Positions 2,051 to 22,496 of a stretch of DNA of 64,000 nucleotides are shown in pieces (the stretch's first letter is position 1; each line of letters begins with the position of its first letter). The notes under the pieces are model-generated. The model did not search any database. It worked only from the letters and a program-made list of their open reading frames with translations, and was not told the DNA's origin. Both the position numbers and the translations under genes were made by a program. The DNA lies in assembly GCA_022827725.1 (NCBI GenBank), contig JAJEIJ010000029.1:6215-70214 (forward strand). The letters run 5' to 3'. The stretch is from Acidimicrobiia bacterium (GTDB lineage Bacteria > Actinomycetota > Acidimicrobiia > Acidimicrobiales > Bin134).

Positions 2051-2378
2051 TGTCGTTGACTTAGATCTGGGGGCACCTGAGGGACGAGAAGCTGGGTTTC
2101 GGCATCCCGCAGTTGTGGTGACCGCCCAGCGAGTGCTTGATGCTGGGCCGAGTATTGTCCATGTGGTTCCGCTTACGACGGTCCTTCGAAAGTTTGCATC
2201 AGAGGTGGAGTTTGAAGCCGATTTCGAGAATGGGCTGGACCATGCGTCAGCTGCCCAGTGTCAGCACATCCGCGCCGTTGCTGCTAGCCGCATCGAAAAC
2301 ACTAGGGGCAATGTCGGCGGTACAGTGCTCAACCAGGTCCGGGAAGTGCTCGGCATCATCCTAGATCTGCCCGGGTAG
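2034..2378 (+). CDS. mazF: MazF/PemK-family endoribonuclease toxin
   Basis: SGDVVDLDLGAPEGREAGFRHPAVVVT...VHVVPLTT matches the PemK/MazF core. ATG 2034 lies inside the longer 1947 ORF of the track. Confidence 0.8.
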   Translation: MLTSGDVVDLDLGAPEGREAGFRHPAVVVTAQRVLDAGPSIVHVVPLTTVLRKFASEVEFEADFENGLDHASAAQCQHIRAVAASRIENTRGNVGGTVLNQVREVLGIILDLPG

Positions 2379-2443
2379 ACCTCGAGCTCCACGGATTTGG
2401 AATCAGAGGAGCCTCGCCTGACGCCTGGTGGCGTTGGTCGCGG

Positions 2444-3952: not shown

Positions 3953-4016
3953 CGAACGAACGGCGGGTCATCGACGGGGCGTTAAGCAGGCCTTCGGTGC
4001 TCTGCTACTGGCTTGT

Positions 4017-5723
4017 TCAAAATGCGTTGGTGGGGAGGGGGTCGATGGCCAGCTCAATGACTGCGGGGCGGTCTTCGGCAATCATGTCCCGGATTGCGTG
4101 ACGGAGGCCAGCTTCATCGGTTACGCGGGTGGCGGCGCAGCCGAATGATTCGGCATATTTCACCAGATCGGGATTGCGCAACTCGGTGCCGAGGAGCCTG
4201 CCGCCGTAGTTGAGCTCTTGGTCGAGGCGGGTGTTGCCGTAGCCGCTGTCGTTGATCACGATGTGGAGGGAGCCGATGTCGTATTGGACGGCGGCGGCCA
4301 GCTCGTTGCTGGCGAACAGGAAGCCTCCGTCGCCGCTGATTGACACGGCTGGGCGTTCGGGGGCGGCCAGCTTGGCGCCGAGGGACATGTTCATGGCAAA
4401 GCCAAGGGTGCCCATGTACGAGGAAGTGAGATAGGAGCGCGGGTGGGCCACTGGCAGGTACATGTGGCACATGTAGCCCACCATGGTGGCGTCAATGGCC
4501 AACACTGCGTCTTCGGGCAGGCTGTCGCTCAGGGCTTCGACGATTGCGGCTTGGGGGCCGGCGGCGCGGTGGGCGGCAACGACTTGTCGGCGAGCCTCCT
4601 GCCACTCGCCGGAGCGGTCGGGGCTCGGATCGCTGATCTGCCGCAGCGCGCCGAGCAGGTCGGTTGCCCCCGCTTCGGCGTCGCCCACCAGGGTCACCTC
4701 GGGCGGGGTGAATCGGCCGATCTCCGCGGGATCGACGTCGAGATGAATCAGTCGGCTGCTTTCGCCTAGCCCGACGCCCTGGAGACGGGTTCCCACGGCG
4801 AGCACCACATCAGCACTGGCGATGACCGGCGCGAGTCGCTCGTGGACGAACACGGTGCCGATTGCCGCGGGATTGCGGCCGTCGATCACGCCCTTGCCCT
4901 CGCGAGTGGAAATGGTCGCCGCTTGGAGGTGATGTTGCAGATAGCGCAGGACCTGTGCTGCGCCATGGGCCCCACCGCCCACCACGATCAGGGGATGGTG
5001 TGCTTCGGCCAACAGCCTGGCGGCTTGCGAGACGAGATCGGGGTCTGGCCTCAGCGGCTCGCTGGCCACCGGGTCGATCACCGGAGCAGCAGTAGGCTCC
5101 TCCATGGTTTCGGGTGGGATCTCGAGGTGGGCCGGGCGGGGACGGCCGCTGGTCATAACCGCGAAGGCCCGTCGAACAGCGGCGGGAAGTTGATCGGCGT
5201 CGGTGACTCGCTCAGCGTGCTTGGTGATCGGCCGGACTACGTCGAGCTGATCGTGTACCTCGTGGGGAAGGCTGTTACCGCGGCCGATCGCATCGCGGTT
5301 GATCTGGCCCGAAATCTGGAAGACCGGCGACGACGCGGCGTACGCCGTCGCCAGGCCGGCCCCAGCGTTATACACGCCGGGACCGGGCACAATGAGAGTT
5401 GTGCCCGGTCGCCCGCTCACTCGGGCATAGCCATCGGCCATGTAGGCGGTGGCCTGCTCATGGCGGGCGGTGATGTAGCGGATCTTGTCGGCACCGAGGT
5501 GGAACGAGTCGAGGATGGGCATGAGCTGCACTCCGGGGATGCCGAACACCACCTCGACGCCTTCGCGCGCAAGCTGCCCGACGACCGCCGATCCGCCCGA
5601 TCGTGTCGGCTGGGCCTCGATTCGCTCGGTCATAGTGGCCTTCGCCCTTACCGTTCCCGTGGCAGCGGCAACATAGCGCGTCTTTGCGACATCGCTTCCA
5701 GTTCCATCCGCTTTGCTGGACAT
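4017..5723 (-). CDS. Thiamine-diphosphate-dependent enzyme (acetolactate synthase / sulfoacetaldehyde acetyltransferase-like fold)
   Basis: 568 aa with the three-domain ThDP layout. ThDP motif ISGDGGFLFASNELAAAVQYDIGSLHIVINDSGYG. Alternative ATG at 5633 (MTERIEAQ). Substrate not assignable by eye. Confidence 0.8.
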   Translation of the reverse strand: MSSKADGTGSDVAKTRYVAAATGTVRAKATMTERIEAQPTRSGGSAVVGQLAREGVEVVFGIPGVQLMPILDSFHLGADKIRYITARHEQATAYMADGYARVSGRPGTTLIVPGPGVYNAGAGLATAYAASSPVFQISGQINRDAIGRGNSLPHEVHDQLDVVRPITKHAERVTDADQLPAAVRRAFAVMTSGRPRPAHLEIPPETMEEPTAAPVIDPVASEPLRPDPDLVSQAARLLAEAHHPLIVVGGGAHGAAQVLRYLQHHLQAATISTREGKGVIDGRNPAAIGTVFVHERLAPVIASADVVLAVGTRLQGVGLGESSRLIHLDVDPAEIGRFTPPEVTLVGDAEAGATDLLGALRQISDPSPDRSGEWQEARRQVVAAHRAAGPQAAIVEALSDSLPEDAVLAIDATMVGYMCHMYLPVAHPRSYLTSSYMGTLGFAMNMSLGAKLAAPERPAVSISGDGGFLFASNELAAAVQYDIGSLHIVINDSGYGNTRLDQELNYGGRLLGTELRNPDLVKYAESFGCAATRVTDEAGLRHAIRDMIAEDRPAVIELAIDPLPTNAF

Positions 5724-5748
5724 CTCTGGTCTCGTACCATAGGGTAGT

Positions 5749-5785
5749 TATTGCGGTATTCGCACAAATAGTGCAATAAACGCAC
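5749..5785. promoter_or_regulatory. Candidate operator/promoter element shared with 15319-15354
   Basis: TTATTGCGG(5749-5757)...GTGCAATAAACGCAC(5771-5785), 16-50 nt upstream of the SBP gene. AGTGCAATAAA (5770-5780) is identical to 15319-15329. Confidence 0.45.
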
Positions 5786-5800
5786 AGAGGGAGGATTCTT

Positions 5801-7228
5801 ATGCCAAGTAGTAACAGCGACCGTCAGCGTTCACCTGGGCGCCTTTGGCGCATTCTCGCAGCAGTCTTCGTTCTTGCCCTCGTCGCGGCCGGATGCGGCA
5901 ATGACGACGATTCGAGTGGTGTGACCGATCCAACCCCGGAGGTGGCCAGCGGCGGTGCTGACGACAGTTCGGGCGACGCCTCGCCTGAGCCAGCGGATGA
6001 TTCGGAGGAGGGGACCGCTGATGCCCCGGCACCCGCCCCGACGCCAGAGCTCTCTGGAACGATCGGCTTCATCAAGGGGCCGCATTCGGCGATGGAGGTC
6101 GAGTTCAACGAGCAGATCATTGCCGATTTCAATGCACAGGTCGCCCCCGACGTCAACGTCGAGTTCTCAACCTATGACTGGCCGGTACACGTAGCTGAGC
6201 TGACAACCCTGTTTGCCAGCGGTTCGCCGCCAGATGTCCAATATCTCGTCGATCTCATCTATCCGGCGTTCGCAGAGCAAGGTGTTTTGCACGACATGAC
6301 GGACTTGGTCAACGATCCGGAGTGGGCCGACGAGCGGGCCGACATCAGCCCCTTCGCCTGGGATCTGGCCGAGCAGCAAGGCGGCACGTGGGGTGTGCCC
6401 GTGCTCGGTGCCGTATACAACATCTTCATCAACGAAACCCTTCTGGAGGAGGCGGGCTTGCTTGACAGCTGGGATGACTCCTATGAGTCGATGCTTGCCG
6501 CGGCCGAGGAACTGACAACCGATGATGTATTCGGCTTTGCGGCGCGAACTTCGGCCGCCGACTTCGCCTGGTGGGATTGGTACCCCTACATCCACAATGC
6601 AGGCGGCGACGTGTTGTCCGACGATTGGACTGAGTGCGGGTTGGTCGGCCAGGACGTGGTCGACGCCATGCAGTTCCTGATCGACATCCACACGGCTGGT
6701 GTCACCCCAGCAATCGGTTCGCTGGACAACCAGGGCCTGTTCGACCTGTTCGCCGCGGGACGTGTGGCGATTTTGCATCATGAGACGCCGAACATCGTGT
6801 CGCTGAATGAGAACCCGCCGGGCTTCTCATGGACGGTCGCGGCTGCGCCCCCCGGGCCACAGGGCCACACGGTGATGGGGAACTTCGGAATCTTGAGCAT
6901 CGCAGAGGCCAGCAACAACAAGGACGCGGCATGGGAGTTCATCAAGCACTGGGCATCTGCTCCGCAGGTTGGAAGATTCGCGGAGCAGGTGAACCTGCAA
7001 GTTGTCCGCACCGACATCATCGGCGATCTGTTTGCCGAGAACCCGGCCATGAAGACCGTGCAATCCGAGCTTGTACCTCGTGTCCAAGGGCTTCAGCCGC
7101 ATCCCCAAATCCTCGAAGCGCTGCAAGCCGCGTGGCCAGTGGCTGAGGATGCGTTCCGCGGAAACCTGACTGGCGAAGAAGCCGTCGCTGGGATGTGTGC
7201 CGCGATCGACGGCGTCCTCGCCGGGTAG
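5801..7228 (+). CDS. ABC transporter substrate-binding lipoprotein (family 1, CUT1 sugar type)
   Basis: Signal peptide with lipobox LVAAGC, then an acidic S/P/D/E linker and an SBP_bac_1-like body. Heads a permease-permease-ATPase operon. Confidence 0.9.
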   Translation: MPSSNSDRQRSPGRLWRILAAVFVLALVAAGCGNDDDSSGVTDPTPEVASGGADDSSGDASPEPADDSEEGTADAPAPAPTPELSGTIGFIKGPHSAMEVEFNEQIIADFNAQVAPDVNVEFSTYDWPVHVAELTTLFASGSPPDVQYLVDLIYPAFAEQGVLHDMTDLVNDPEWADERADISPFAWDLAEQQGGTWGVPVLGAVYNIFINETLLEEAGLLDSWDDSYESMLAAAEELTTDDVFGFAARTSAADFAWWDWYPYIHNAGGDVLSDDWTECGLVGQDVVDAMQFLIDIHTAGVTPAIGSLDNQGLFDLFAAGRVAILHHETPNIVSLNENPPGFSWTVAAAPPGPQGHTVMGNFGILSIAEASNNKDAAWEFIKHWASAPQVGRFAEQVNLQVVRTDIIGDLFAENPAMKTVQSELVPRVQGLQPHPQILEALQAAWPVAEDAFRGNLTGEEAVAGMCAAIDGVLAG

Positions 7229-7329
7229 CGGAAGGGCAGAAACCACGTTCGCATCAGGCCGCTGCGGCCTCCAGGACTTTCCCCTCCCCTCGGAGGCCAT
7301 TGCAGCGGCCACGTGCGAGCCCTTCAGGA

Positions 7330-7380
7330 GTTCTGGCGCCCCAGGCAGGTGGGATTTGGGGCGCCAGAACCTCCCTTTTT
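7330..7380 (+). terminator. Intercistronic stem-loop / partial intrinsic terminator after the SBP gene
   Basis: Perfect 13-bp stem, gttctggcgcccc (7330-7342) with ggggcgccagaac (7358-7370). 15-nt loop, followed by ctcccTTTTT. Confidence 0.55.
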
Positions 7381-7492
7381 CGGTGTTGGCTATCTTCAGT
7401 GAGAGGCGGGGAGCGTCTAGGCAAGCACCAGAGCGGCTCGGGGCCCGTTGCTTGGCTTTGGCTAACTTCAATGCGAGGGGAGGCAGCACGCG

Positions 7493-8431
7493 ATGACTGA
7501 TGTCGACACCGGCTTGAGCAGCACGCAGCTGACCCTTTCCCCGGAGGAGCACCGCCGGCTGCGGAGACGATACCGACGGCGTACAACGCTCACCGCCTAC
7601 GCCTTTTTGGGACCGAATCTGCTGGCGTTTATCGCGTTTCTCCTCATTCCAGTTGTGTGGCTTTTCGTGTCCACGTTCAGGACTGGAGGCGTGCTTGGTC
7701 CTGCTGAGTTCGTTGGCCTCGACAACTGGCGAGACACATTCGCCGACCCGCTGGCTAGAACAAGCATCCGCAACACGGTGGTCTACAGCGCGATGGCGAT
7801 CCCGGCCGTGTTCATCATCGCCATGGTCTTGGCATTGGCATTGCGCACGATTTCCCGCGGCAGTGCTCCGATCCGCGTTGCCCTGTACTTGCCGACACTC
7901 CAACCAGCCGTAGTGGCTGCGTTCATCTTTGCGTTCGTGCTGCACCCCGACTTCGGGGTAATCAACTATGCCATTCGGGGGCTTGGCGGCGACCCGATCA
8001 ACTTCCTGGGCGACACGTCGCTCGCGCTCCCCACGATTGCCGGGATCGAGGTGTGGCGGGGGACCGGGTTCTGGACGATGATGTTCCTCGCTGGTTTGAC
8101 AGCTCTGCCCAGCGAGCTCTACCACGCCGCGGAGATCGACGGGGCCGGCGCGATACGGCGGTTCCTGCGGCTGACGCTTCCCTTGCTGCGGCCGACCTTC
8201 TACTTCGCGGTCATTTTTGCGACGATCGTCAACCTCCAGCTCTTCGACTCCGTTTTCGCGCTCACCGATGGAGGTCCGGTCAACAGCACGATCTCGGTGT
8301 CGCTCTACATCTATCGGAGCCTGTTCTTGTTTGGCGACATCGGTTTCGGAGCGACGCTGTCCTTCCTGCTGGTCATCACTGTTCTGGTCCTCACCGGGCT
8401 TCAGACGTTCCTGCTGCGAGACCGGAAGTGA
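7493..8431 (+). CDS. ABC transporter permease (MalF/UgpA type)
   Basis: Six hydrophobic segments. EAA loop YHAAEIDGAGAIRRFLRLTLPLLRP. Confidence 0.9.
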   Translation: MTDVDTGLSSTQLTLSPEEHRRLRRRYRRRTTLTAYAFLGPNLLAFIAFLLIPVVWLFVSTFRTGGVLGPAEFVGLDNWRDTFADPLARTSIRNTVVYSAMAIPAVFIIAMVLALALRTISRGSAPIRVALYLPTLQPAVVAAFIFAFVLHPDFGVINYAIRGLGGDPINFLGDTSLALPTIAGIEVWRGTGFWTMMFLAGLTALPSELYHAAEIDGAGAIRRFLRLTLPLLRPTFYFAVIFATIVNLQLFDSVFALTDGGPVNSTISVSLYIYRSLFLFGDIGFGATLSFLLVITVLVLTGLQTFLLRDRK

Positions 8432-9324
8432 CGACGCCAGGGACTTACGAGGACGAGACACGCGAGGTGGAATCTTCCGGCAGTGCGGCTCGTTCGGGGC
8501 TGCCAGCGTCGCGACCGGCGATTGCATTGTCATACGTGATTCTGCTCGTTGGGGTCGCGATCGCGCTCGTGCCGTTCCTGTATGTCGTGTCCACCTCGTT
8601 GAAGGAAACGACGTCGCTGTTCAGCTACCCGCCAGACTGGATCCCGTCGCCGATCTATTGGGGCAACTTCGAATCGCTGTTCGCAGACCACCCGTTCGTG
8701 TGGTGGACCTTCAACACGCTCTTCGTCGCGGGCGCGGTGACCGTGTTGAAGCTTTGGTTCGACACTATGGCGGGCTACGCGTTGGCGAAGATGGAGTTCA
8801 CGGGCAGGCGCGGTGTCGCCCTGCTGTTCCTGCTGTCGGTGGCGATTCCCATTTCGGCGTTGATCATCCCGCTGTTCTTCGTGGTCCGCTATCTCGGGCT
8901 CTTGAACACCTATTGGGCTCTGATTCTGCCGCCGCTGGCGAACCCCCTCGGCATCTTCATGGCTCGCAGTTTCATCGTCGGGATCCCCGACAACCTGGAG
9001 GACTCAGCTCGCCTTGACGGCGCTTCTGAGTTCACCATTTACCGCAGAATCGTCTTGCCGCTGATCCGCCCTGGACTGGTGGTATTGGGGATGTTCACGT
9101 TCATGTTGCAGTACACGTCGTTCATCTGGCCCCTCATCGCGGTGCAGGACTCCGAGCGGCAGGTGCTCGCAGTCGGCATCTCTGGCCTCCAGAGCGCGTT
9201 CTTGCAGGACTGGGGTCTGCTCTCGGCAGCCATGTTGGCGGCCGCCATCCCCATCACACTTGTGTTCCTGCTGGTTCAGAAGGCATTCGTGGTCAACGAT
9301 CTCTCCGGCGCACTCAAGGAATAG
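8428..9324 (+). CDS. ABC transporter permease (MalG/UgpE type)
   Basis: GTG 8428 overlaps the upstream stop (GTGA). EAA loop EDSARLDGASEFTIYRRIVLPLIRP. The track ORF from 8053 is an out-of-context N-terminal extension. Confidence 0.88.
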   Translation: MTTPGTYEDETREVESSGSAARSGLPASRPAIALSYVILLVGVAIALVPFLYVVSTSLKETTSLFSYPPDWIPSPIYWGNFESLFADHPFVWWTFNTLFVAGAVTVLKLWFDTMAGYALAKMEFTGRRGVALLFLLSVAIPISALIIPLFFVVRYLGLLNTYWALILPPLANPLGIFMARSFIVGIPDNLEDSARLDGASEFTIYRRIVLPLIRPGLVVLGMFTFMLQYTSFIWPLIAVQDSERQVLAVGISGLQSAFLQDWGLLSAAMLAAAIPITLVFLLVQKAFVVNDLSGALKE

Positions 9325-9330
9325 GAAGAA

Positions 9331-10455
9331 ATGCCCGCCTTGTCATCCCCGTCTGACGTCGCTGTGAGCCTCATCCAAGTCGCGAAGTCCTACGGCGCCG
9401 TCGAGGTGCTACAGCCATTCGACTTACAAGTCGCTGAAGGCGAATTCGTTGTCCTCCTGGGCCCCTCCGGGTGCGGCAAGAGCACGATCCTGAAGATGAT
9501 CGCAGGGCTTGAGGAAGCCAGCCACGGCGAGATCCACGTCGCGGGCGAACTCGTCAACTACGTCAGGCCCCGAGACCGCAACGTGGCTATGGTCTTCCAG
9601 AACTACGCGCTGTATCCCCACATGACGGTGCGAGAGAACATCGCGTTTCCACTCAAAATGAGCCGGCAGCCCCGACTGAGGCGCGCGGTCATCGAGGAGC
9701 GCACCGCCGAGGCAGCCGACATCGTTGACTTGACGCCGTACCTTGGCCGAAAACCTGCGCAGTTGAGCGGCGGGCAGCGGCAGCGGGTTGCCCTGGCTCG
9801 AGCGATCGTTCGCCAACCAGCAGTGTTTCTCATGGACGAGCAGCTCTCCAACCTCGACGCGTTGTTGCGCGCCGACATGCGGACGAGCCTCTTGGATATG
9901 CATGCCCGCATAAAGAAGGCGACGTTGTACGTCACCCACGACCAGATCGAGGCCATGACGATGGCCGACCGGGTCGTGGTCCTCAACGCGGGGCGGATCC
10001 AGCAGGTCGGACAGCCTCACGAGCTGTACACCGCTCCCGCGAACACGTTTGTGGCTCAGTTCATCGGGAGCCCGCGCATGCCACTCCACTCGCTCACGGT
10101 GAGCGACGACGGCGCTCTTCGGATTGTCGACACGACCCTCGCTCCCGACGCTGCCGTCGCCCTGGAGCCGGGGGCCGCGGTCACCGTGGGCCTGCGGCCC
10201 AGCGCGCTGCGGGCGACGGACTCGGCGTCAGCGTGCTTCTCCGGCGAGGCGAGGCGACGCGACTACCTCGGCAGCGACAGCTACCTGGAGGTCGATCTGG
10301 GAGACGGCTCATCGGCGATGGTGCGGGCCGAGGCCGATACTGATGTGCGGCCTGGCGACGTCGTTCACATAGACGCTGCTCCCGGTGCGATTCACGTCTT
10401 CGATGAGGCAGGGGTGCGGATCTGTGGTGCTTCGGTGGGCCAGCGAGAGCGATGA
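9331..10455 (+). CDS. ABC transporter ATP-binding protein (MalK/UgpC type)
   Basis: Walker A GPSGCGKST, signature LSGGQRQRVALARA, Walker B VFLMDEQ, and a C-terminal TOBE-like domain. Confidence 0.93.
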   Translation: MPALSSPSDVAVSLIQVAKSYGAVEVLQPFDLQVAEGEFVVLLGPSGCGKSTILKMIAGLEEASHGEIHVAGELVNYVRPRDRNVAMVFQNYALYPHMTVRENIAFPLKMSRQPRLRRAVIEERTAEAADIVDLTPYLGRKPAQLSGGQRQRVALARAIVRQPAVFLMDEQLSNLDALLRADMRTSLLDMHARIKKATLYVTHDQIEAMTMADRVVVLNAGRIQQVGQPHELYTAPANTFVAQFIGSPRMPLHSLTVSDDGALRIVDTTLAPDAAVALEPGAAVTVGLRPSALRATDSASACFSGEARRRDYLGSDSYLEVDLGDGSSAMVRAEADTDVRPGDVVHIDAAPGAIHVFDEAGVRICGASVGQRER

Positions 10456-10541
10456 GCAGCGCATCGATGCTCATCGCGGAAGGCGTGACTGCTCCCGAAG
10501 GGCCCACTCTCGGGCCGGGCGGCTGGATACTGAATGTTTGA
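10452..10541 (+). other. N-terminal segment of the lactonase reading frame, ended by an in-frame TGA (10539-10541)
   Basis: ATG 10452 overlaps the ATPase stop (ATGA). It encodes MSSASMLIAEGVTAPEGPTLGPGGWILNV, the usual SMP-30 N-terminus, in the same frame as 10587-11387. Confidence 0.6.
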
Positions 10542-10586
10542 AGCTTTAGCCGCGACAGCAACCCGAGGGTCTCCGGCGGTGACATT

Positions 10587-11387
10587 GTGGCGACGCACCC
10601 CGATCGCCCGGGCGACACGCGGCGACTGTTCAACACCTCCGCCGGCGACGTGGAGGGGATACCCGCGGCGCTGGCATTCGGACCCGACGGCTGCCTCTAC
10701 ATCACCGACGAGGGGCACCGGGCGATTCTGCGGGCGACCGATCAAGGAGCACTGTCGGTGTACGTGCGATCACCGAACGGGCCGAACGATCTCAGTTTCG
10801 ATCGCGAGGGCAATCTCTGGTTCACCGATCCGTGGGGTTCGGATCTCGACAACGCCATTGGCGGGGTATATGTCCTCCACGCGGGAACGGCGATTCCCGA
10901 ACAGATCGCATCTGGTTTGGCGTTTCCGAACGGGGTCGTGGCCACGTCAGAGGAGTTGGTGTATGCGGAGACTCGTACGAGCCGCTTGTGGCGCCACCGG
11001 CGATTAGTCGAAGGGCAGCTCGGCGGAGCGGAGCTCTTCGCGGAGCTGCCTCTTGAGGCTGGCGTCGAAGTGCAAGGTCCTGACGGCATGGCGCGTGATG
11101 TGCGCGGTAACCTGTATGTGGCCCACTACGGCGCTGGGTGTGTCCGCGTGTTTGCGCCTGACGGCACCCAACTCGATCCGATTGCGGTGCCGGGCCGCCA
11201 CCCAACCAACCTGTGCTTCGGAGGGCCGGACATGGGCACGCTGTTCGTGACGCTCGACGACGCCGATCAGCTCATCGCGCAGCGGGTGCCCTGCCAAGGA
11301 GCCACGATCCAGTTCTGCCCGTCGGCCAGCGAACCATCCGCATGTGAGCGCTGGCTGCGCTTGATCGAGAACAGTCCCGCGGTGTGA
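10587..11387 (+). CDS. SMP-30/gluconolactonase/LRE-family protein (possibly a pseudogene or a recoded gene; see finding)
   Basis: Beta-propeller repeats: PDGCLYITD, GNLWFTDP, NGVVAT, GNLYVAHYG, PTNLCFGG. The first start after the TGA is GTG 10587, which would delete the first blade. Confidence 0.7.
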   Translation: MATHPDRPGDTRRLFNTSAGDVEGIPAALAFGPDGCLYITDEGHRAILRATDQGALSVYVRSPNGPNDLSFDREGNLWFTDPWGSDLDNAIGGVYVLHAGTAIPEQIASGLAFPNGVVATSEELVYAETRTSRLWRHRRLVEGQLGGAELFAELPLEAGVEVQGPDGMARDVRGNLYVAHYGAGCVRVFAPDGTQLDPIAVPGRHPTNLCFGGPDMGTLFVTLDDADQLIAQRVPCQGATIQFCPSASEPSACERWLRLIENSPAV

Positions 11388-11425
11388 TCAAGGGTGGATA
11401 GAGCAAGAGGGTGCGTCGATTTGAA

Positions 11426-12193
11426 TTACACCTCGTTGCCGTTGGGGCCGTTGTCGGTCCACCCGAATTCTCGGGAGATGCCAAAGCTGGCCTTGAAGAG
11501 CTGCGGCACCATGGAAAGCAGGGTGTCGTAGTCGCAGGACAGAGTCGTGGTGGTGATCGATACCGATCCGATGACCTGACCGGATGCCTCGAATACCGGT
11601 GCGGCGACGCAGTTGACCCACGGCTCGTGCTCGAGATGGTCGATCGCGTAGCCGCGCTCAATAGTGGCCCGAAGGTCTGCGAGATACTCGCCGGTGCTCG
11701 TGATGGTGTTCTCGGTGTGGGCGACGTAGTCGATGGTCGACGCAATGCGATCTTGGTCCTCGGGTGGAAGAAACGCGACGATGGCCTTGGCGACGCCTGT
11801 GCAGTGGAGCGGTGCTGTGTTGCCGATACGGGAGTACATGCGGACGGTCTGTTTCGCTTCGCGCTTGTCGATATAGACAACGGTGTCGCCCTCGAGCATG
11901 GCGAGATGGATCGTATGCTCGACATCATGGCTGAGGTCGGTGAGAAACGGCGCAGCGACCGAGCGGAGATCGATGTTCTCCAACGCCGCATTGGCAAGGC
12001 TGATAACACGGCGACCGAGGCGGAACACGTTGTGGCTGTCTCGTACCACCATCTGCTCGGCCTCGAGCACTTGGAGTGTCCGCAAGGCAGTGCTGCGATG
12101 GGTCCCCATAAACGAAGCGATCTGTTCGATCGACGATGGCCTCTCGGCGATCTGGCCCAGTACTTGGATGGCTCGTTGCACGGTCTGGCTCAT
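11426..12193 (-). CDS. IclR-family (KdgR-like) transcriptional regulator
   Basis: N-terminal wHTH VQRAIQVLGQIAERPSSIEQIASFMGTHRSTALRTLQVLE plus a C-terminal IclR effector domain. Last gene of the kdgK-eda-deaminase string. Confidence 0.9.
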   Translation of the reverse strand: MSQTVQRAIQVLGQIAERPSSIEQIASFMGTHRSTALRTLQVLEAEQMVVRDSHNVFRLGRRVISLANAALENIDLRSVAAPFLTDLSHDVEHTIHLAMLEGDTVVYIDKREAKQTVRMYSRIGNTAPLHCTGVAKAIVAFLPPEDQDRIASTIDYVAHTENTITSTGEYLADLRATIERGYAIDHLEHEPWVNCVAAPVFEASGQVIGSVSITTTTLSCDYDTLLSMVPQLFKASFGISREFGWTDNGPNGNEV

Positions 12194-12207
12194 CGCGCCT
12201 CCGCTCG

Positions 12208-12213
12208 ATTATA
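12208..12213 (-). promoter_or_regulatory. Perfect TATAAT hexamer 14 nt upstream of the iclR ATG
   Basis: The plus strand reads attata, so the minus strand reads TATAAT. No convincing -35 element. Confidence 0.25.
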
Positions 12214-12279
12214 GGGGTTGGATGCCGGGCGAGGGGGCGGCTCGGGTTGGCCGGGGTATTGGGTGAGCAACGTTTCGGG

Positions 12280-13506
12280 TTAGAACTCGGTTGAGATCAC
12301 GGCGACGACCGTCCCATTGTCATCTACTTCGGGAATGTGCTTCCACTTGTCGAACGTTGTACACGGGTGGCTGATCCCAAGCGAGATGAAATCGCCGACG
12401 GCTAGAGCATCTGAGGCTTCGACGGTCAAATAAGCGTGTTGGTCCATGAGGTTGGAGACTCGCCAGGAGTCAGGGGCGGGGGTGCGTCGAGTCTGCTGGT
12501 ATCGCCACAGCGGCACCGGGAGTCCCTGGTCGAACGACACGTCCCTCTTCCCGAGATCAAGCAGGGCAAGTGTTGGCTCAGGGCGTGAAATGACCTGGGC
12601 GATAGCTTCGAGCGCCGGTCGGAACGGGGCCAGTTCGGCATGGTCTCGGAGCGGGGAAATCTTGTTGTAGAACCCGCTGTCGTGGGTGACGTAGCAGCCG
12701 CTGCGCAGAACGAGCTCGCCATGGTGGGCATCGGCCACCGGGCCACAGATGTCGACAACATCATCGAAACAGGCACTTCCGCCCGCTGTGAGGATCGGGG
12801 GAGTTTCCGGGTCGTAAAGTCCGAGGGCGGCTATCCTCTCGAACGAATGGGCGAGAAGCCGCAGATAGTCCTGCACATGACAGCGGTCGCCATGATCGTG
12901 GGCGGAGAGGAACACGCCCTCGTACCCGGCGACCCCGGCAAAGCGCACCGTCTTCAGAGCCCTCGCCTCTTCTGCCAGCGCAATCGCCTCGTCGATGTTG
13001 CGCACGCCGCCTCGGCCGCCGCGATCGCCGATTTCCACGAGAACTGATACGTGCCCAGCGCTGTTGCGATTGAGTCGAGAGAGGCCGGTGTGCGAGTCGA
13101 CGAAGCAATAGAGTTCGAGGCCGCGGGTTGAGGCTTCGAGTGCCCAGTCGATAGCGGGCTCGTTGACTAGTTGGTTGGCGATGAGCAGGCGTTGTAGGCC
13201 GAAGTCGAAAAGGGTCCGTGCTTGGACAGCGTTGGCGATGGTTATCCCCCATGCGCCGTGCGCGATCTGGCGGGAGATCAGGCTGGGCGCCATGGTGGTC
13301 TTGCCATGCGGCGCCAGTTCGACCCGGTTTGCGAGGCAGAATTCGCGCATCATTGCAAGGTTGTGTTCAATCGCGGTGGTACGGGCAATGATGAGAGGGG
13401 ACAAAAACGTTCCATCGAAGACGTTGCGACCGATCAAGGCATCTGTCGCTGCCCCGACTAGGTCGGTGGGGATCGCCTTGGAGCTGGGTCGAAGCTGCTC
13501 TGTCAT
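12280..13506 (-). CDS. PLP-dependent amino-acid/amino-sugar-acid deaminase (alanine-racemase-fold, D-serine-dehydratase-like)
   Basis: 408 aa with the PLP-lysine motif APHGKTT. Has an alanine-racemase N-terminal-type barrel and a C-terminal beta domain (ISLGISHPCTTFDKW). Confidence 0.75.
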   Translation of the reverse strand: MTEQLRPSSKAIPTDLVGAATDALIGRNVFDGTFLSPLIIARTTAIEHNLAMMREFCLANRVELAPHGKTTMAPSLISRQIAHGAWGITIANAVQARTLFDFGLQRLLIANQLVNEPAIDWALEASTRGLELYCFVDSHTGLSRLNRNSAGHVSVLVEIGDRGGRGGVRNIDEAIALAEEARALKTVRFAGVAGYEGVFLSAHDHGDRCHVQDYLRLLAHSFERIAALGLYDPETPPILTAGGSACFDDVVDICGPVADAHHGELVLRSGCYVTHDSGFYNKISPLRDHAELAPFRPALEAIAQVISRPEPTLALLDLGKRDVSFDQGLPVPLWRYQQTRRTPAPDSWRVSNLMDQHAYLTVEASDALAVGDFISLGISHPCTTFDKWKHIPEVDDNGTVVAVISTEF

Positions 13507-13576
13507 CGTGGGGATTCCGACTCAATGGTGGGGAACCCGATGCTGGCACTGGATCGAAGCAGCCCTTTAGTCGTCA

Positions 13577-14233
13577 TCATTGGGATTCCCGTCTGCCGGT
13601 GAGCCATCTTCTCAGCAAATCGACACCCTTGGGCCGGACAAGCTCGGTGCCGAGTCCAATCCCAAGGGCACCTGCGTCAAGGTACTGCTCGATCTCTGCG
13701 ATGGTCACGCCACCGGTAGGGACGAACGAAACATCGGGAAAGGGCCCCGACATGGCCGCGAGGAAGCGGGTTCCTCCGACCTCCCGGGCAGGAAACAGCT
13801 TCAGCTCCGAGACACCGTGGGCCTGCGCCAGCTGAATTTCGGTGGGTGTCGCCACTGCCGGCAGGTAGGGGATGCCCGACTCTTTGGCCTGGCCTACGAG
13901 TTCAATATCAAGGCCGGGAGAGATGGCAAATGCAGCACCGAGGTCGATGACTCGATGGAGGTTGGCAACTGAGGTGACGCTGCCTGCGCCCAAGGGCCGG
14001 TTGTTTTCAGCCGCGATCTCGGCGACGAACTCGAGCGTCCGGAGTCCGTCGTCATCTTGCACGGTGACCTCGATGAGGTCGATTCCGACGTCCCACAACG
14101 CTTGGGCGGTGGTCGCCGCAGCTGCGGGTGGGAGTCCTCGTAGAATCGCGATGATCGGGCAGCGGCGGAGGTGGGCCTGAAAGTACGACACCGCAGTTGT
14201 GGTGCTCTGGTGTGCTTCAGTGGCTCGCCTCAT
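13577..14233 (-). CDS. eda: 2-dehydro-3-deoxy-phosphogluconate (KDPG) / KHG aldolase
   Basis: CPIIAILRG, IDLIEVT, FAISPG, LKLFPA, PTGGV are the Eda motif series. ATGA overlap with kdgK. Confidence 0.88.
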   Translation of the reverse strand: MRRATEAHQSTTTAVSYFQAHLRRCPIIAILRGLPPAAAATTAQALWDVGIDLIEVTVQDDDGLRTLEFVAEIAAENNRPLGAGSVTSVANLHRVIDLGAAFAISPGLDIELVGQAKESGIPYLPAVATPTEIQLAQAHGVSELKLFPAREVGGTRFLAAMSGPFPDVSFVPTGGVTIAEIEQYLDAGALGIGLGTELVRPKGVDLLRRWLTGRRESQ

Positions 14234-15267
14234 GTGGGTGCGCTCGGGGGCAGTCCCGGCGTCCGCTGGGTGTTGCCGCTGATGTCGGTTAGGACCAGGT
14301 TTGCTGAGAGCCAGTCCTCGGGTGATAAGTCGAGCAGGCGTTCTATCGTGGCGTCATCGGCAATGGGGCCCACGTCGCTGTGCTGGGAAAGTGCGCTCAT
14401 GGCTGTGATGTGCCCGAGCCGCAGGGCGGCTTCGATGTTGTCGTCGTATCGGAGCACCCCGACGATGAATCCGGCTGCAAACGCATCCCCGGCGCCGATC
14501 GGCTCGACGACGGTGCCGTTGAGCGCGGGAACGAAGTGTGTTCGGCCGCGTCGGTCGGCATAAGCGCCGTTGTCGGCGTCCTTGATGACAACTGTCTTGG
14601 GTCGGGGAAGCAGGGTGCGGACATCGGCGGCTGTGGTGGCACCCCAGAGGTCATCGGCTTCATCAAGTCCAACGAAGACGATGTCGCATCGGTTTGCGGC
14701 CTCCCGCAGTGCTTTCGGGGGATCTCCTCGCTCCCAGATTGAAGGGCGCCAGTTGATGTCGAAGGACACGAGCGCCGACCGGGATGGATCTCCGATCAGG
14801 GATCGGACAAGTTTGTTGCAGGAGTTGGACAAACCCAGAGTGATCCCAGTCAGGTGGAGGACTCTCGGCCCCTGACTGAGCTCGGGCCCGGTCGGCGGCC
14901 CCATTGCTGCTGCTGCGGAGCCGGCCCGGTAGTAGCGGACTCGCCGCTCATCTTCGGTGACCTCCTTGAGCATGAGCCCGGTCTGGCGATCGGAAAGCCG
15001 GCGCACCCCGCTTACGTCGACGCCTGCGCTCTCGATGGTCGAGAGCACGAGGTCCCCAGCCAGGTCAGTGCCGAGCTGGCTGACCCACGCGGCTTGCATA
15101 CCGAGAGCTGCGCAGTAGCGCGCAACGTTGGACTCCGCGCCGCTTACTTCCCATTCGAAGGCCGCTCGGTTCGGGTGGGGCCGTATGGTCAGCATTGACT
15201 CCCCCAAGGCAACAATGTCTGGGAAGGGTCTGCGGTCGCTCGGCTCGTCGGCCGAGTGGTTCATCAT
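14230..15267 (-). CDS. kdgK: PfkB-family sugar kinase, 2-dehydro-3-deoxygluconokinase-like
   Basis: VALGESML start and C-terminal GAGDAFAAGFIVG nucleotide motif. Translationally coupled to eda. Confidence 0.8.
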   Translation of the reverse strand: MMNHSADEPSDRRPFPDIVALGESMLTIRPHPNRAAFEWEVSGAESNVARYCAALGMQAAWVSQLGTDLAGDLVLSTIESAGVDVSGVRRLSDRQTGLMLKEVTEDERRVRYYRAGSAAAAMGPPTGPELSQGPRVLHLTGITLGLSNSCNKLVRSLIGDPSRSALVSFDINWRPSIWERGDPPKALREAANRCDIVFVGLDEADDLWGATTAADVRTLLPRPKTVVIKDADNGAYADRRGRTHFVPALNGTVVEPIGAGDAFAAGFIVGVLRYDDNIEAALRLGHITAMSALSQHSDVGPIADDATIERLLDLSPEDWLSANLVLTDISGNTQRTPGLPPSAPT

Positions 15268-15318
15268 GCGCTCCTCGGGGTAGCGGTACTCGTGTGGACT
15301 CTCATGATGCTAGCTTGA

Positions 15319-15354
15319 AGTGCAATAAATACATAAAGAGTGCGGATATTGCAC
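15319..15354. promoter_or_regulatory. Candidate operator in the kdgK / D-aminoacylase divergent spacer
   Basis: Inverted repeat GTGCAATA (15320-15327) ... TATTGCAC (15347-15354). The reverse complement of 15340-15354 (GTGCAATATCCGCAC) matches 5771-5785 at 13/15 positions. Confidence 0.45.
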
Positions 15355-15447
15355 ATATTGAAAGGGGAGGGGCTATTCGAGTGGGGGTCTACAGGTCAGC
15401 CAGCCGGAGGAATTCGATCCAAAAACCGCCATCACGGGGGTGGTGAC

Positions 15448-16902
15448 GTGTACGACCTCGCCATTCGAGGAGTACTCATTGAGGACGGCTCCGGAGGGCA
15501 ATCGTTTGAGGGAGACATCGCCGTCGATGGCGGTCACATCGCTGCGGTGGGATCAGTGGGTGCGTCGCGGGCCGAGGTCGATGCCGAGGGGCTGGTCGCC
15601 GCCCCCGGCTTCGTTGACGCGCACACCCACGACGACATGGAACTCCATTGCAACCCCGACAACGGATCGAAGATCAAGCAGGGTGTAACGACGGTCATCT
15701 GCGGCAGCTGCGGATTCAGTGCGTTCCCTCATGCGCCTGGGCGGCCTTCGCCAGACTTCTTGTCGGTCGATGGCTGGTGGCGGACATACCAGGAGTACCA
15801 GGAAGTGCTGACCGATCATGGCATCGGCACAAACTCAGCTTCCTTCGTCGGCCACAACACCGTTCAGCGGCTTCTCCTGGGGACCGATAGCGCCGAACCT
15901 AGTGCTCGGGCACTCGCGGCCGTGTGCGACGACATCCGGAGGGCGATGGACCACGGAGCGTTGGGCGTGTCCACGGGCCTCATCTACCGTCCTGGTCGGC
16001 ACACGTCAACGGCAGCGCTGACACGAATCGTTGCGACCGTGTCCGACTACGGCGGCATACACAGCACACACCTGCGCGACGAATCAGACGGCCTTCTCAA
16101 TGCCATTGCCGAAGTCGCCTCCGTGTCTCGAGAAACCGGCGCATCGCTCCAGATCTCTCATCTCAAGGTCATCGGGGAGCACAATTGGGGCAGCCTCAGC
16201 GCCGCACTCGACCAGATTGACAGGATCCGAGCCGACGGGATCGACATCGCCTTCGATGTGTACCCCTACACCGCAGGGTCAGGGCCATTGGCGACCTATT
16301 TCCCTCCCGACGACATCGACGTGACCAGGGCTCGATTGGTCCAGATCATTCGATGTCCCGACTACCCCCACTTTGAAGGGTGGCGGCTCGCCGACATCGC
16401 GCGCGAGGAGGGCCTCTCACTGCGCGGTGTCACCCACCGTCTCGTCACAGCCCCGAATGCCGACAAGACACTGTGTGTCATCTTCGAGATTCACGAAGAC
16501 GACATGCTGGAGGCGCTGTCGCATCCAGCGGCGATGGTCGGAAGCGACGGGATACCCCAGCAGACAGGAGTGCCTCATCCGCGTTTGCAAGGCACGTTCC
16601 CCCGGGTTCTCGGCCACTTCAGCAGAGACAAGGGGGTGTTGTCGCAAAGCGCGGCGATCCAGAAGATGACGTCCATACCGGCGACTCGGTACGGCCTACT
16701 GGGCCGCGGCCTGCTGGAACCCGGCTATGCGGCCGACATTGTCGTATTCGACCCGACCACGATTGCGGACTGCGGAACTTACTCCTCACGTGCCGATCCA
16801 GTGGGCGTTCGCCACGTTTTCGTCAACGGGAAACAAGCGCTGTCAGACGCTGCCCTCACCGGTGTTCGAGCAGGCCGGGTTCTGACACGCGAGGAACGCT
16901 GA
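15448..16902 (+). CDS. N-acyl-D-amino-acid deacylase (D-aminoacylase) family amidohydrolase
   Basis: DLAIRGVLIEDGSG...APGFVDAHTHDD metal-binding start and D-aminoacylase length. GTG 15448 preceded by GGGGGTGG; the track ORF begins at 15340. Confidence 0.85.
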   Translation: MYDLAIRGVLIEDGSGGQSFEGDIAVDGGHIAAVGSVGASRAEVDAEGLVAAPGFVDAHTHDDMELHCNPDNGSKIKQGVTTVICGSCGFSAFPHAPGRPSPDFLSVDGWWRTYQEYQEVLTDHGIGTNSASFVGHNTVQRLLLGTDSAEPSARALAAVCDDIRRAMDHGALGVSTGLIYRPGRHTSTAALTRIVATVSDYGGIHSTHLRDESDGLLNAIAEVASVSRETGASLQISHLKVIGEHNWGSLSAALDQIDRIRADGIDIAFDVYPYTAGSGPLATYFPPDDIDVTRARLVQIIRCPDYPHFEGWRLADIAREEGLSLRGVTHRLVTAPNADKTLCVIFEIHEDDMLEALSHPAAMVGSDGIPQQTGVPHPRLQGTFPRVLGHFSRDKGVLSQSAAIQKMTSIPATRYGLLGRGLLEPGYAADIVVFDPTTIADCGTYSSRADPVGVRHVFVNGKQALSDAALTGVRAGRVLTREER

Positions 16903-16973
16903 GTCCACGGGCTCCATATGAGGTTGAGACCCAGAGGTCTGCCAGGTCTGGCTCGCCATAGAAAGGATTGACA

Positions 16974-17366
16974 ATGACTAGTCGACACGCCGTAGCCAGC
17001 AGCGAAGTGCCGGAGGCCTCAGGCCCCTACTCAGCAGCAATCGTCTCGCGGGGGTTCGCATTCTTGTCGGGTCAGGGGCCATACGACGCTGAGGGCACCC
17101 TTGCGGGTGAAGACATCGCAAGCCAGACACGACAAACACTCCAAAACTTGGAAGCCGTCGCACAAGCCAGCGGCGCGACGCTCAGAGAGGCCGTGCGGGT
17201 GTGTGTCTACCTGACTGACATGGCGAACTTCACGGCCATGAACGCTGTCTTCGCAGAGTTCTTCGAGCAGCCGTACCCAGCTCGAACGACGGTTCAAACT
17301 GGGCTTCCAAAGCCTGAGATGCTGGTTGAGATCGACGCGATCGTCGCACGGCCTGAACCGGCCTGA
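16974..17366 (+). CDS. ridA: RidA-family reactive enamine/imine deaminase
   Basis: GPYSAAIVSRGFAFLSGQ...ARTTVQTGLP...VEIDAIV is the YjgF/RidA signature. ATG 16974 lies 7 nt after GAAAGGA (track TTG 16968). Confidence 0.9.
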   Translation: MTSRHAVASSEVPEASGPYSAAIVSRGFAFLSGQGPYDAEGTLAGEDIASQTRQTLQNLEAVAQASGATLREAVRVCVYLTDMANFTAMNAVFAEFFEQPYPARTTVQTGLPKPEMLVEIDAIVARPEPA

Positions 17367-17436: not shown

Positions 17437-17685
17437 ATGAGAACGGTCATTACCATCCCAGACCAGATTCATGCTAAGGCCAAACAGCGCGCTGCGGAAT
17501 TGGGGATCAGTTTTGCGGAGTTTGCCCGCCGCTTGCTCGAGAAGGAACTAGAGACCCCCACTCCCCAAGGAGATATCGAAGCCATTTGCGGCATGGTCAG
17601 CGGCTCGCCATTTGATATGGCCCGAGATGGAAATGAGATCGCTGCGGAGGCAGCCCACTGGCTGAGTTCCGAAGAGTCCGGCTAG
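17437..17685 (+). CDS. vapB: RHH/CopG-type antitoxin (VapB position)
   Basis: MRTVITIPDQIHAKAKQRAAELGISFAEFARRLLEKEL. Lies 3 nt upstream of a PIN gene. Confidence 0.8.
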   Translation: MRTVITIPDQIHAKAKQRAAELGISFAEFARRLLEKELETPTPQGDIEAICGMVSGSPFDMARDGNEIAAEAAHWLSSEESG

Positions 17686-17688
17686 AGG

Positions 17689-18108
17689 ATGGAGTCCTCC
17701 TATGTGGACACCTCGGCATGGGTGGCGATGGCTGATGGTGCCGAGGTATCTCACAAAGCTGTAGCCGAGGCACTCCGCATCCGGCAGGGGTGCTTGGTCA
17801 CCAGTGATCATGTACTTCACGAAACTTGGGCGGTAATGCGCTACCGGCACAACTTCTATACAGCCGAAAAGCTCGTCAACACCATCCGAAACGGCATCGC
17901 CAGGATTGAAGTATCGGGTTTGGCCGACCTCGAAGCAGCCGCCGCTATTGGGGTTGCATTTGCCGACCAGGACTTTTCGCTTTCGGATCGCACAAGCTGG
18001 GCGATCATGGAACGACTTGGGATCCACTATGCGATCTCGCTCGATAATGATTTCCGCGTCTACCGATTCGGCCCCGGACGCCGCCAAGCCTTCTCTGTCG
18101 CTCCGTGA
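17689..18108 (+). CDS. vapC: PIN-domain ribonuclease toxin
   Basis: Acidic PIN quartet in context: YVDTSAW, LHETW, SLSDRTSW, SLDNDF. 139 aa. Confidence 0.85.
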   Translation: MESSYVDTSAWVAMADGAEVSHKAVAEALRIRQGCLVTSDHVLHETWAVMRYRHNFYTAEKLVNTIRNGIARIEVSGLADLEAAAAIGVAFADQDFSLSDRTSWAIMERLGIHYAISLDNDFRVYRFGPGRRQAFSVAP

Positions 18109-21970: not shown

Positions 21971-22018
21971 CACGCGCACAGAAATCCACCCTAGTAGCCA
22001 GTGGGTTAGATTCCGCTG

Positions 22019-22450: not shown

Positions 22451-22496
22451 TCGATTATGAATAGCTGGAGTCATTCGCCAGCAGGAGGAGATTCAG

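Follow-up and report, generated by a model that had tools for sequence, protein, structure and literature searches.

A candidate IclR regulon for the catabolism of an N-acyl-amino-aldonate in a sponge-associated member of the Acidimicrobiia

The 64-kb stretch of DNA analysed here (the window; ~62% G+C) comes from a sponge-associated Acidimicrobiia genome, an uncultured Actinomycetota metagenome-assembled genome (MAG) obtained from a sponge metagenome, and it carries a cluster of genes that probably serves the catabolism of an N-acylated amino-sugar acid (amino-aldonate). Sponge metagenomes are almost the sole place where the window DNA turns up, and its nearest named relative is 'Candidatus Poriferisocius'. 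For the pyridoxal phosphate (PLP)-dependent protein of the cluster, identity to the counterpart encoded by the MAG 'Acidimicrobiia bacterium p16x57bins.12' is 96%, and a second Acidimicrobiia MAG has one of 76% identity, in agreement with the Gram-positive-type context that had been assigned to the cluster in an earlier note, made from the letters alone. Gene identities were established by profile scans with Pfam and NCBIfam models, which recovered all genes named in that note where it had placed them, and structural relatives were found as matches to PDB sequences (HMMER alignments).

The core of the cluster consists of two divergent units, kdgK-eda-(PLP dehydratase)-iclR on one side and a D-aminoacylase-family amidohydrolase gene followed by ridA on the other, with the operon of a CUT1-family ATP-binding cassette (ABC) importer and a lactonase gene adjoining. 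The minus strand encodes a PfkB-family 2-keto-3-deoxygluconate (KDG) kinase (kdgK, 14230-15267; PfkB domain), the KDPG (2-keto-3-deoxy-6-phosphogluconate)/4-hydroxy-2-oxoglutarate (KHG) aldolase Eda (13577-14233; PF01081), a fold-type III PLP enzyme resembling D-serine dehydratases (12280-13506; PF01168 (Ala_racemase_N) and PF14031 (D-ser_dehydrat)) and, as the final gene of the kdgK operon, a regulator of the IclR/KdgR type (11426-12193; IclR_C and HTH_IclR domains). On the plus strand, the D-aminoacylase-family metallo-amidohydrolase (15448-16902; Amidohydro_3 domain), hereafter called the deacylase, is followed by the enamine/imine deaminase RidA (16968-17366; PF01042). The importer operon, also on the plus strand, comprises a CUT1-family solute-binding lipoprotein (SBP, 5801-7228; SBP_bac_1 and SBP_bac_8 domains, with the lipobox LVAAGC at the N-terminus), permease 1 of the UgpA/MalF-like type (7493-8431; BPD_transp_1 domain and a UgpA-like NCBIfam match), permease 2 of the UgpE/MalG-like type (8428-9324; recognized by both Pfam and NCBIfam), a MalK/UgpC-type ATPase (9331-10455; ABC_tran and TOBE_2 domains, NF008653 at 417 bits) and an SMP-30/SGL (gluconolactonase-family) lactonase gene (10452-11387; SGL domain at 5.7e-36, from profile position 43). 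Several of these genes overlap: kdgK and eda share 4 bp, the GTG start of permease 2 overlaps the stop of permease 1 (GTGA), and the true ATG start of the lactonase gene at 10452 overlaps the stop of the ATPase gene (ATGA). The kdgK-eda operon also contains the PLP gene, which is flanked by gaps of 70 and 86 bp.

Enzymes of the same families have been described together in Pseudoalteromonas prydzensis ACAM 620, whose ong cluster comprises OngA (glycoside hydrolase family 20, GH20), OngB, OngC, OngD, KdgK, OngR (RpiR) and OngIT, a transporter of the sodium/solute symporter (SSS) type (PMC9537276, PMC12017989). OngB is a deacetylase of N-acetyl-D-glucosaminate (GlcNAc1A) with the D-aminoacylase fold, while OngC is a fold-type III PLP deaminase that yields KDG (PMC9537276, PMC12017989). 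The route has been reported as essentially gammaproteobacterial (PMC9537276). The earlier note had described it correctly (PMC9537276), except that RidA had been regarded there as an addition to the route; OngD is itself a RidA protein and is essential, and kdgA has been also found in the ong clusters of Vibrio, Klebsiella and Serratia (PMC9537276).

The kdgK and eda genes form a KDG module, in which the PfkB kinase is nearest to KDG kinases and its gene overlaps that of a class I KDPG aldolase. The best NCBIfam matches of the kinase are KDG/2-keto-3-deoxygalactonate (KDGal) kinases, below cutoff, and its best PDB match is the Thermus KDG kinase 1v19 (6e-34). Eda scores above the cutoff of the KDPG/KHG aldolase model (TIGR01182, 161.8 bits vs 156.05) and lower on the model of 2-keto-3-deoxy-6-phosphogalactonate (KDPGal) aldolase. 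RidA, which is OngD-like, exceeds the cutoff of TIGR00004 (111.3 bits vs 106.25) and is likely to start at ATG 16974, the gene call on L001 being 130 aa long. In the PLP enzyme the PLP lysine is found in the motif APHGKTT, and the segment ISHPC is aligned to SHVD of the D-threonine aldolase 4v15, i.e. H-x-C vs H-x-D, with H380 and C382 being invariant in 21 homologues. H-x-C is the dehydratase-type motif, by which the metal is bound in those D-serine and D-threo-3-hydroxyaspartate dehydratases whose structures are known; judged from these residues, the enzyme looks like a dehydratase. Its best PDB match is 3gwq (6e-70). The comparison with OngC was made by way of an ong-type cluster on a Ralstonia megaplasmid, in which the genes for deaminase and KDG kinase are divergent from those for aldolase, DsdX/GntP permease, D-aminoacylase and RpiR; the identity to the deaminase encoded there is 41%. 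The deacylase of the Ralstonia cluster carries the full OngB-type signature and matches Klebsiella KleDacyl (9g5m) at 2.7e-200 and P. prydzensis OngB (PpOngB) at 4.4e-163. We propose that the PLP enzyme of the window is a 2-amino-2-deoxy-aldonate ammonia-lyase of the OngC-like kind.

The GTG start of the deacylase at 15448 is backed by the alignment with two related loci, L002 and L003, and by a 484-aa gene call on L001. Its best PDB match is the D-aminoacylase of Alcaligenes, 1m7j (2.6e-91), followed by 3gip (3.8e-83) and PpOngB, 9kb1 (3.3e-79), and it is 38% identical to the Alcaligenes enzyme (AfDam), 37% to BbDam and 34% to PpOngB, whereas OngB and AfDam share 46%. For residue comparison, the PDB sequences were rebuilt from the HMMER alignments and aligned with 59 cluster-linked homologues, and the residues of OngB are numbered as in PpOngB. 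The metal ligands, Asp368, Tyr194, Lys254, Tyr285, Ser291, Arg379, Leu116 and Leu370 have been found to be common to OngB and D-aminoacylases, while the specificity for GlcNAc1A has been ascribed to Ala193, Ala256, Ser290, Ser292, Gln298 and Gly348, with Glu226 touching the C4 hydroxyl (PMC12017989). In the deacylase of the window the Cys/His/His metal ligands and the catalytic Asp are retained, Tyr194, Lys254, Tyr285, Ser291 and Arg379, which bind the carboxylate and acetamido groups, are all present, and the acyl pocket positions 116 and 370 are occupied by Phe and Ile (Leu and Leu in PpOngB). When it is compared with AfDam, which has a hydrophobic side-chain pocket (Phe191, Met254, Leu298 and Met346) and Thr290, Ile is found at each of the first two positions, Thr290 and Met346 are replaced by Gly and Glu, respectively, and loop 2 is expanded. 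Because of the above identities, and because the OngB specificity residues are absent, we place it by sequence in a deeper branch of the D-aminoacylase family, roughly as far from OngB as from the classical D-aminoacylases, and not among OngB orthologues. The retained residues are those of an enzyme that looks functional for substrates of the N-acyl-amino-aldonate kind, and we propose it as an N-acyl-2-amino-2-deoxy-aldonate deacylase whose clade is separate from that of OngB.

Three clades of such deacylases can be told apart by their motifs: the OngB type (AY/HKA/SSSTLD..Q/YH(G/N)) in Gammaproteobacteria and Ralstonia, the window type (IY/HKI/AGSGP/IFEI) in Acidimicrobiia, and the actinomycete type (TY/HTN/PGATYLSALLP/MHVG) in Pseudonocardiales, Rhodococcus rhodnii, Tsukamurella and others. 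All three occur beside the PLP gene and kdgK. The Glu at the Gly348 position, within the IFEI motif, is conserved throughout the window-type clade, while the Ralstonia and Klebsiella deacylases keep the OngB signature except for Asn at this position. In public databases the deacylase and PLP proteins are labelled as D-aminoacylase or amino acid deaminase. An 835-aa fusion of a glucose-methanol-choline (GMC) oxidoreductase with a deacylase (P0214, L087 3855-6362) was considered as a functional clue, as it would, if real, tie oxidation of the sugar at C1 to deacylation, but it was rejected, because it comes from a long-read contig of 1.2x depth with split genes.

Both promoter spacers of the cluster, the 77-bp spacer 5' of the SBP gene and the divergent kdgK/deacylase spacer, contain two operator-like 15-bp boxes each, of the form (G/T)TGC-N7-(G/A)CA(C/T). 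They are TTGCGGTATTCGCAC (5751-5765) and GTGCAATAAACGCAC (5771-5785) in the former, and GTGCAATAAATACAT (15320-15334) and GTGCGGATATTGCAC (15340-15354) in the latter, the second box of each pair being a perfect GTGC-N7-GCAC. The 10-mer GTGCAATAAA has exact copies in the 64 kb only at 5771 and 15320, with 0.03 expected and two or more found in 0 of 100 shuffles. In L002 and L003 the boxes are kept although the rest of the spacers has diverged, L088 has the box GTGCAATAACTGCAC in its homologous promoter (kdgK//SBP-...-deacylase), and the equivalent spacers of L004, L089 and L090 carry related tandem TGC-N7-GCA boxes. The best NCBIfam match of the IclR protein is KdgR (4.4e-43, below cutoff), and iclR is present in the cluster in 45 of the 80 genomes surveyed (see below). 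We propose these boxes as IclR binding sites, and since the GTGC-N7-GCAC operator is common to the promoters of the ABC and catabolic units, the IclR protein of the cluster would control the ABC/lactonase operon together with the catabolic operons as one regulon. Relative to L002 and L003, the kdgK/deacylase spacer also contains an insertion of ~74 bp (~15360-15435) between the boxes and the deacylase start.

The only NCBIfam match of the SBP is a marginal one (2.4e-4) to NgcE, the SBP for N-acetylglucosamine (GlcNAc) and chitobiose. The lactonase gene, which had been noted as lying next door, is indeed present, but in the window strain it is interrupted: codon 30 is an in-frame TGA (10539-10541), the N-terminal EGP motif lies 5' of this premature stop, and the longest intact open reading frame (ORF) covers 10587-11387. 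The protein matches the PDB lactonases 7ris and 8djf at 5e-26. Both L002 and L003 have a Cys codon at the position of the TGA, and base 10541 is C (giving TGC) in three other sponge runs with related strains, while run X1, the window's own, reads TGA. Selenocysteine was considered and rejected, as the codon is TGC in L002, whose lactonase is 90% identical, and a point nonsense mutation is the simplest explanation. Aldonolactones open spontaneously at alkaline pH (PMC12017989), because of which loss of the lactonase may be tolerable. A second SMP-30 gene, which is intact, is located at 46915-47898. Every run shows contig depth ~4x higher over the ABC ATPase gene (9251-10304), where many short 'joints' are also seen. 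The simplest explanation of this peak is that conserved ATPase sequences of other members of the community cross-map to the gene, rather than that the locus has a special feature.

The conservation of the gene arrangement was surveyed in 80 genomes fetched through the PLP protein, with the neighbourhood taken as 10 kb. A D-aminoacylase homologue is found within this distance in 56 of the 80, together with kdgK in 38, and 37 of these 38 contain also iclR and ridA; the arrangement is not due to chance. The window-type deacylase clade, which reaches down to ~50% identity and is marked by the IFEI motif, is accompanied by kdgK in all eight of the other related contexts sampled (L002-L005, L084, L088, L089 and L090) and by eda in seven, eda not being seen in L090, where the locus ends at the PLP gene. 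An ABC importer, of either the CUT1 or the Opp type, adjoins the deacylase in every sampled context. The layout of the window recurs in L002 and L003. The importer of L088 is of the CUT1 type, with overlapping ATPase and deacylase genes in one operon; that of L004, L005, L089 and L090 is of the Opp type (SBP_bac_5), and L084 has an Opp system, kdgK and eda without a PLP gene. The neighbouring deacylase clade (43-45% identity) shows no linkage to kdgK in the two contexts sampled. In a neighbour-joining tree of the PLP proteins (made without support values), the window-type and actinomycete-type clusters fall into separate clades that match the clade of their deacylases. On the Ilumatobacter-like contigs L084-L086 a window-type deacylase of 52% identity, the Opp ABC genes, kdgK and eda (2303-13755) stand beside genes for a short-chain dehydrogenase/reductase (SDR) and an MlrC-like peptidase, with no PLP deaminase, RidA or IclR within 20 kb; this locus may represent a variant route.

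The occurrence in Gram-positive bacteria, which the earlier note had pointed out, is not unique to the window, as parallel clusters exist in Pseudonocardiales, Rhodococcus rhodnii and Tsukamurella. In R. rhodnii (L027, 7628-20759) the genes are arranged as RidA-IclR-KdgK//PLP-deacylase-Eda-GntP-lactonase (PF10282)-CUT1 SBP-permease-permease-GH20. This long form with GH20, in which Eda is an optional member, has been found in 14 loci (L010, L012, L014, L017-L019, L027, L040, L046, L055, L058, L059, L069 and L075) and is common in Pseudonocardiales (e.g. Amycolatopsis, L012) as well as present in R. rhodnii, while a short form, PLP-deacylase-GntP without GH20, has been found in ~20 further loci (Lentzea, Saccharothrix) and in Tsukamurella (L083). 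Carriers of the GntP or SSS type accompany the two deacylase clades other than that of the window, and a GntP carrier implies an aldonate. The lactonase and the ABC importer beside this core are a recurrent Gram-positive theme, and the actinomycete clusters therefore support their inclusion in the unit of the window, as had been put forward before; for the ABC operon this is strengthened by the shared operator. The actinomycete long form looks like a complete Gram-positive counterpart of the ong cluster. No description of the Gram-positive versions, including the actinomycete cluster, was found in the literature searched for GlcNAc1A, the coverage of which was incomplete, and they appear to be undescribed.

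Taken together, these data lead us to favour, with some reserve, the view that the region 5751-17366 is one IclR-controlled regulon for an imported N-acyl-2-amino-2-deoxy-hexonate, most likely GlcNAc1A, the lactone of this acid or a compound closely similar to it. The assigned families, the structure of the operons and the comparison of genomes argue for the route from amino-aldonate to KDG and bear out the pathway logic of the earlier note, i.e. N-deacylation at a D-configured alpha carbon, PLP-dependent elimination assisted by RidA, and the action of KdgK and Eda. Under the proposed scheme, the N-acyl-amino-aldonate would be taken up by the lipoprotein SBP and the CUT1 ABC transporter, and any 1,5-lactone would be opened by the SMP-30 lactonase, a presumably dispensable step whose gene is inactivated in the window strain. 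The mononuclear metallo-amidohydrolase, recognizing the free alpha-carboxylate and the D-configured C2, would then remove the N-acyl group, and the metal-assisted fold-type III PLP enzyme would eliminate the 3-OH and the amino group, with RidA accelerating the hydrolysis of the enamine/imine to KDG and ammonia. Phosphorylation by KdgK would give KDPG, to be cleaved by Eda to pyruvate and glyceraldehyde-3-phosphate. IclR would act on the tandem GTGC-N7-GCAC boxes of both divergent promoters and be released presumably by a pathway intermediate. We infer the conversion of the N-acyl-2-amino-2-deoxy-hexonate into KDPG, as well as which compound is the substrate, in what order the steps follow and that the IclR protein of the window is the regulator; GlcNAc1A is the leading candidate by analogy with the ong route.

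A number of observations weigh against this reading. The deacylase is slightly nearer to the Alcaligenes D-aminoacylase, which prefers hydrophobic substrates, than to OngB; five of the OngB specificity positions are replaced (Ala193 by Ile, Ala256 by Ile, Ser290 by Gly, Ser292 by Gly and Gly348 by Glu), and loop 2 is longer and remodelled (YPYTAGSGPLATYFPPDD), so that a counterpart of Gln298 cannot be assigned. The enzymes of the OngC type are broad and deaminate also D-Ser and D-Thr (PMC9537276). No alignment column passed as separating the kdgK-linked from the unlinked PLP homologues, and the sequence of the PLP enzyme is therefore silent on the substrate. The SBP has only weak PDB relatives, among sugar SBPs, is 22% identical to the SBP of the Rhodococcus cluster and has no detectable similarity to that of L088; since this similarity is of the generic CUT1 kind, no ligand can be deduced from it. 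The lactonase gene is probably a strain-specific pseudogene that arose by nonsense mutation. No homologue of GH20, GntP or the PF10282 lactonase was found by tblastn in the whole 64 kb, and no lytic polysaccharide monooxygenase (LPMO) or chitinase (GH18) domain among the window ORFs scanned with Pfam, as the earlier note had stated for LPMO, chitinase and GH20. Finally, the metatranscriptome of one sponge gave coverage too thin to be of use, with only small contigs over the gene for a thiamine pyrophosphate (TPP) enzyme next to the cluster, iclR, part of the PLP gene and the region of the PIN gene. The missing OngB determinants, the import by ABC systems only and the absence of GH20 leave real room for another substrate, and the caution about the substrate that had been voiced in the earlier note is justified.

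The amino-aldonate route may act on something other than GlcNAc1A, differing in the N-acyl group or in sugar configuration, such as GalNAc-onate (leading to KDGal), an N-acyl-aminogluconate carrying a different acyl chain or an oxidized amino sugar from the host or sponge, the window-type clade representing a new specificity. The replaced residues, the remodelled loop 2 and the clade-wide Glu at the Gly348 position would be accommodated by such a substrate, as would the best NCBIfam matches of the kinase, which are bifunctional KDG/KDGal kinases, and the fact that this clade imports always by ABC systems (CUT1 or Opp), never by the GntP or SSS carriers of the other two clades, and has no accompanying GH20. 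On the other hand, Eda passes the KDPG/KHG model and scores lower on the KDPGal model, the acyl pocket (Phe/Leu116, Ile370) is small and hydrophobic, as in acetyl-specific enzymes, and there is no positive sequence sign of another substrate, so that we consider a substrate other than GlcNAc1A unlikely. A related possibility, somewhat doubtful but to be given slightly more credit, is that the window-type clade as a whole (IFEI/AGSGP) defines a route for an N-acyl amino-aldonate other than chitin-derived GlcNAc1A, e.g. host- or sponge-derived or differently acylated aminogluconate. In every case kdgK and an ABC importer accompany this clade, and in none does GH20 or GntP; if the clade did define such a route, it would be a third, independently recruited family of carbohydrate de-N-acylases in the D-aminoacylase fold.

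The units might also be separate, with the deacylase, RidA and the PLP enzyme salvaging N-acyl-D-amino acids (N-acetyl-D-Ser and N-acetyl-D-Thr, to pyruvate and 2-oxobutyrate) and with kdgK and eda serving an unrelated source of KDG, such as uronates or alginate. Such a division would fit the Alcaligenes D-aminoacylase as the best PDB match of the deacylase, the hydrophobic Ile at two pocket positions, as in AfDam, the deamination of D-Ser and D-Thr by OngC-type enzymes and the public annotation; however, it is quite improbable in view of the location of the PLP gene within the kdgK-eda operon, the recurrence of the deacylase-PLP-kdgK linkage with three deacylase clades and across phyla (38 of 80 genomes, plus Ralstonia and Tsukamurella), the lack of linkage in both sampled contexts of the clade neighbouring that of the window, and the actinomycete core being co-operonic with GntP, the lactonase and GH20. 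Finally, by analogy with the semi-phosphorylative Entner-Doudoroff pathway, one can envisage an internal oxidative, non-phosphorylative route for GlcNAc or glucosamine, in which the CUT1 importer would bring in a neutral amino sugar, to be oxidized at C1 by a dehydrogenase encoded elsewhere and passed through the lactonase, deacylase, PLP enzyme, KdgK and Eda. Neutral sugars are the usual cargo of CUT1 systems, the SBP has its marginal match to NgcE, the lactonase resembles cytoplasmic ones and shares its operon with the importer, and one homologous deacylase is called as a fusion with a GMC oxidoreductase or lies beside one. But the conserved unit contains no sugar dehydrogenase, the GMC fusion is probably an artefact for the reasons given above, and the lactonase is dispensable in the window strain, which makes this route highly improbable. 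We retain the reading of the region as a regulon for GlcNAc1A or a close analogue as the preferred one.

The limits of the cluster are narrower than the span from 4017 that had been proposed originally, which takes in an acetolactate-synthase-like TPP enzyme (4017-5723, minus strand; nearest NCBIfam model PRK08266, below cutoff). This gene and a sulfatase gene (2444-3952, minus strand), which lies outside the span 4017-17366, were considered as cluster members (2444-5723) and rejected, because they are found beside the cluster only in the window and L002; the sister genome L003 has cobalamin (cob) genes in their place, and the other relatives lack both beside the cluster. The TPP enzyme and sulfatase genes are divergent to the SBP gene, so that the operator-bearing spacer is common to both sides in the window and L002 only. 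Directly 3' of ridA lies a toxin-antitoxin pair of the ribbon-helix-helix (RHH, FitA-like)/PIN type (17437-18108), and a MazF/PemK toxin gene (1947-2378) is found close to the start of the window. Elsewhere in the window there are a GH3 glycosidase with an Fn3-like domain (37461-39926), a second CUT1 ABC importer (53196-59017), a 673-aa fusion of NAD-dependent epimerase/SDR and F420H2-dependent quinone reductase domains (20453-22474) and an 800-aa protein with two matches to CoA-transferase family III (28766-31168). In the neighbourhood of these two unusual fusions there are also two P450s, several genes of the Amidohydro_2 family and a TauD dioxygenase.

For the acid that LPMO-oxidized chitin finally yields, no route other than the ong route has been described. 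Our comparison indicates that Actinomycetota encode at least two more forms of this core chemistry. The first occurs in Acidimicrobiia that are marine or live with sponges, the second in cultivable soil actinomycetes (Amycolatopsis, R. rhodnii), and each has a different clade of the D-aminoacylase-fold deacylase. If confirmed, this would widen the taxonomic reach of oxidized amino-sugar recycling into Gram-positive lineages, would provide testable enzymes for the proposed new carbohydrate-esterase family, and would mean that enzymes of the D-aminoacylase fold have been recruited more than once to sugar-acid substrates.

Among the known systems, the DgaE route for amino-aldonates shares with the proposed pathway the KDPG end point, reached by PLP-dependent elimination, but it begins with phosphorylation via the phosphotransferase system (PTS) and uses no deacylase, RidA or KdgK; DgaE is a PLP enzyme unrelated to that of the window. 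The latter resembles the family of D-serine dehydratase, D-threo-3-hydroxyaspartate dehydratase and D-threonine aldolase in its PF01168 and PF14031 domains and PLP lysine, and the dehydratase branch in its H-x-C motif, but it is distant from the characterized members, its nearest structure, 3gwq, being an uncharacterized structural-genomics 'D-serine deaminase'. The deacylase shares with the classical D-aminoacylases (AfDam 38%, BbDam 37%) the fold, the metal site, the catalytic Asp and the carboxylate clamp, and differs from them in the pocket, where Gly replaces Thr290 and Glu replaces Met346, and in its longer loop 2, while its kdgK/eda context is not one of D-amino-acid salvage. The actinomycete cluster has the same core of IclR, RidA, KdgK, PLP enzyme and Eda at 36-46% identity (Eda 31-36%), with the kdgK and deacylase units likewise divergent and, in the long form, with a lactonase and a CUT1 ABC importer. 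However, its deacylase, which is 32-34% identical to that of the window and has Thr and Tyr in place of Lys254 and Glu226, belongs to the third clade, the lactonase is of the non-homologous, 7-bladed PF10282 type, and its GntP and GH20 are absent from the window. The ong cluster differs from that of the window in that its deacylase is 34% identical and of another clade, its specificity residues being absent from the window enzyme, its regulator is RpiR instead of IclR, its uptake relies on an SSS symporter and TonB receptors instead of a CUT1 ABC system with a lipoprotein SBP, and its host is a gammaproteobacterium instead of an Acidimicrobiia sponge symbiont; besides, the window has an SMP-30 lactonase gene and no GH20 (OngA), with no LPMO domain among the scanned ORFs. 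Yet all five enzyme families of the ong route (OngB, OngC, OngD, KdgK and KdgA) are matched in the window, and both clusters are organized as divergent operons with a local repressor-type regulator, the KDPG aldolase being included in the window as it is in the Vibrio and Klebsiella versions.

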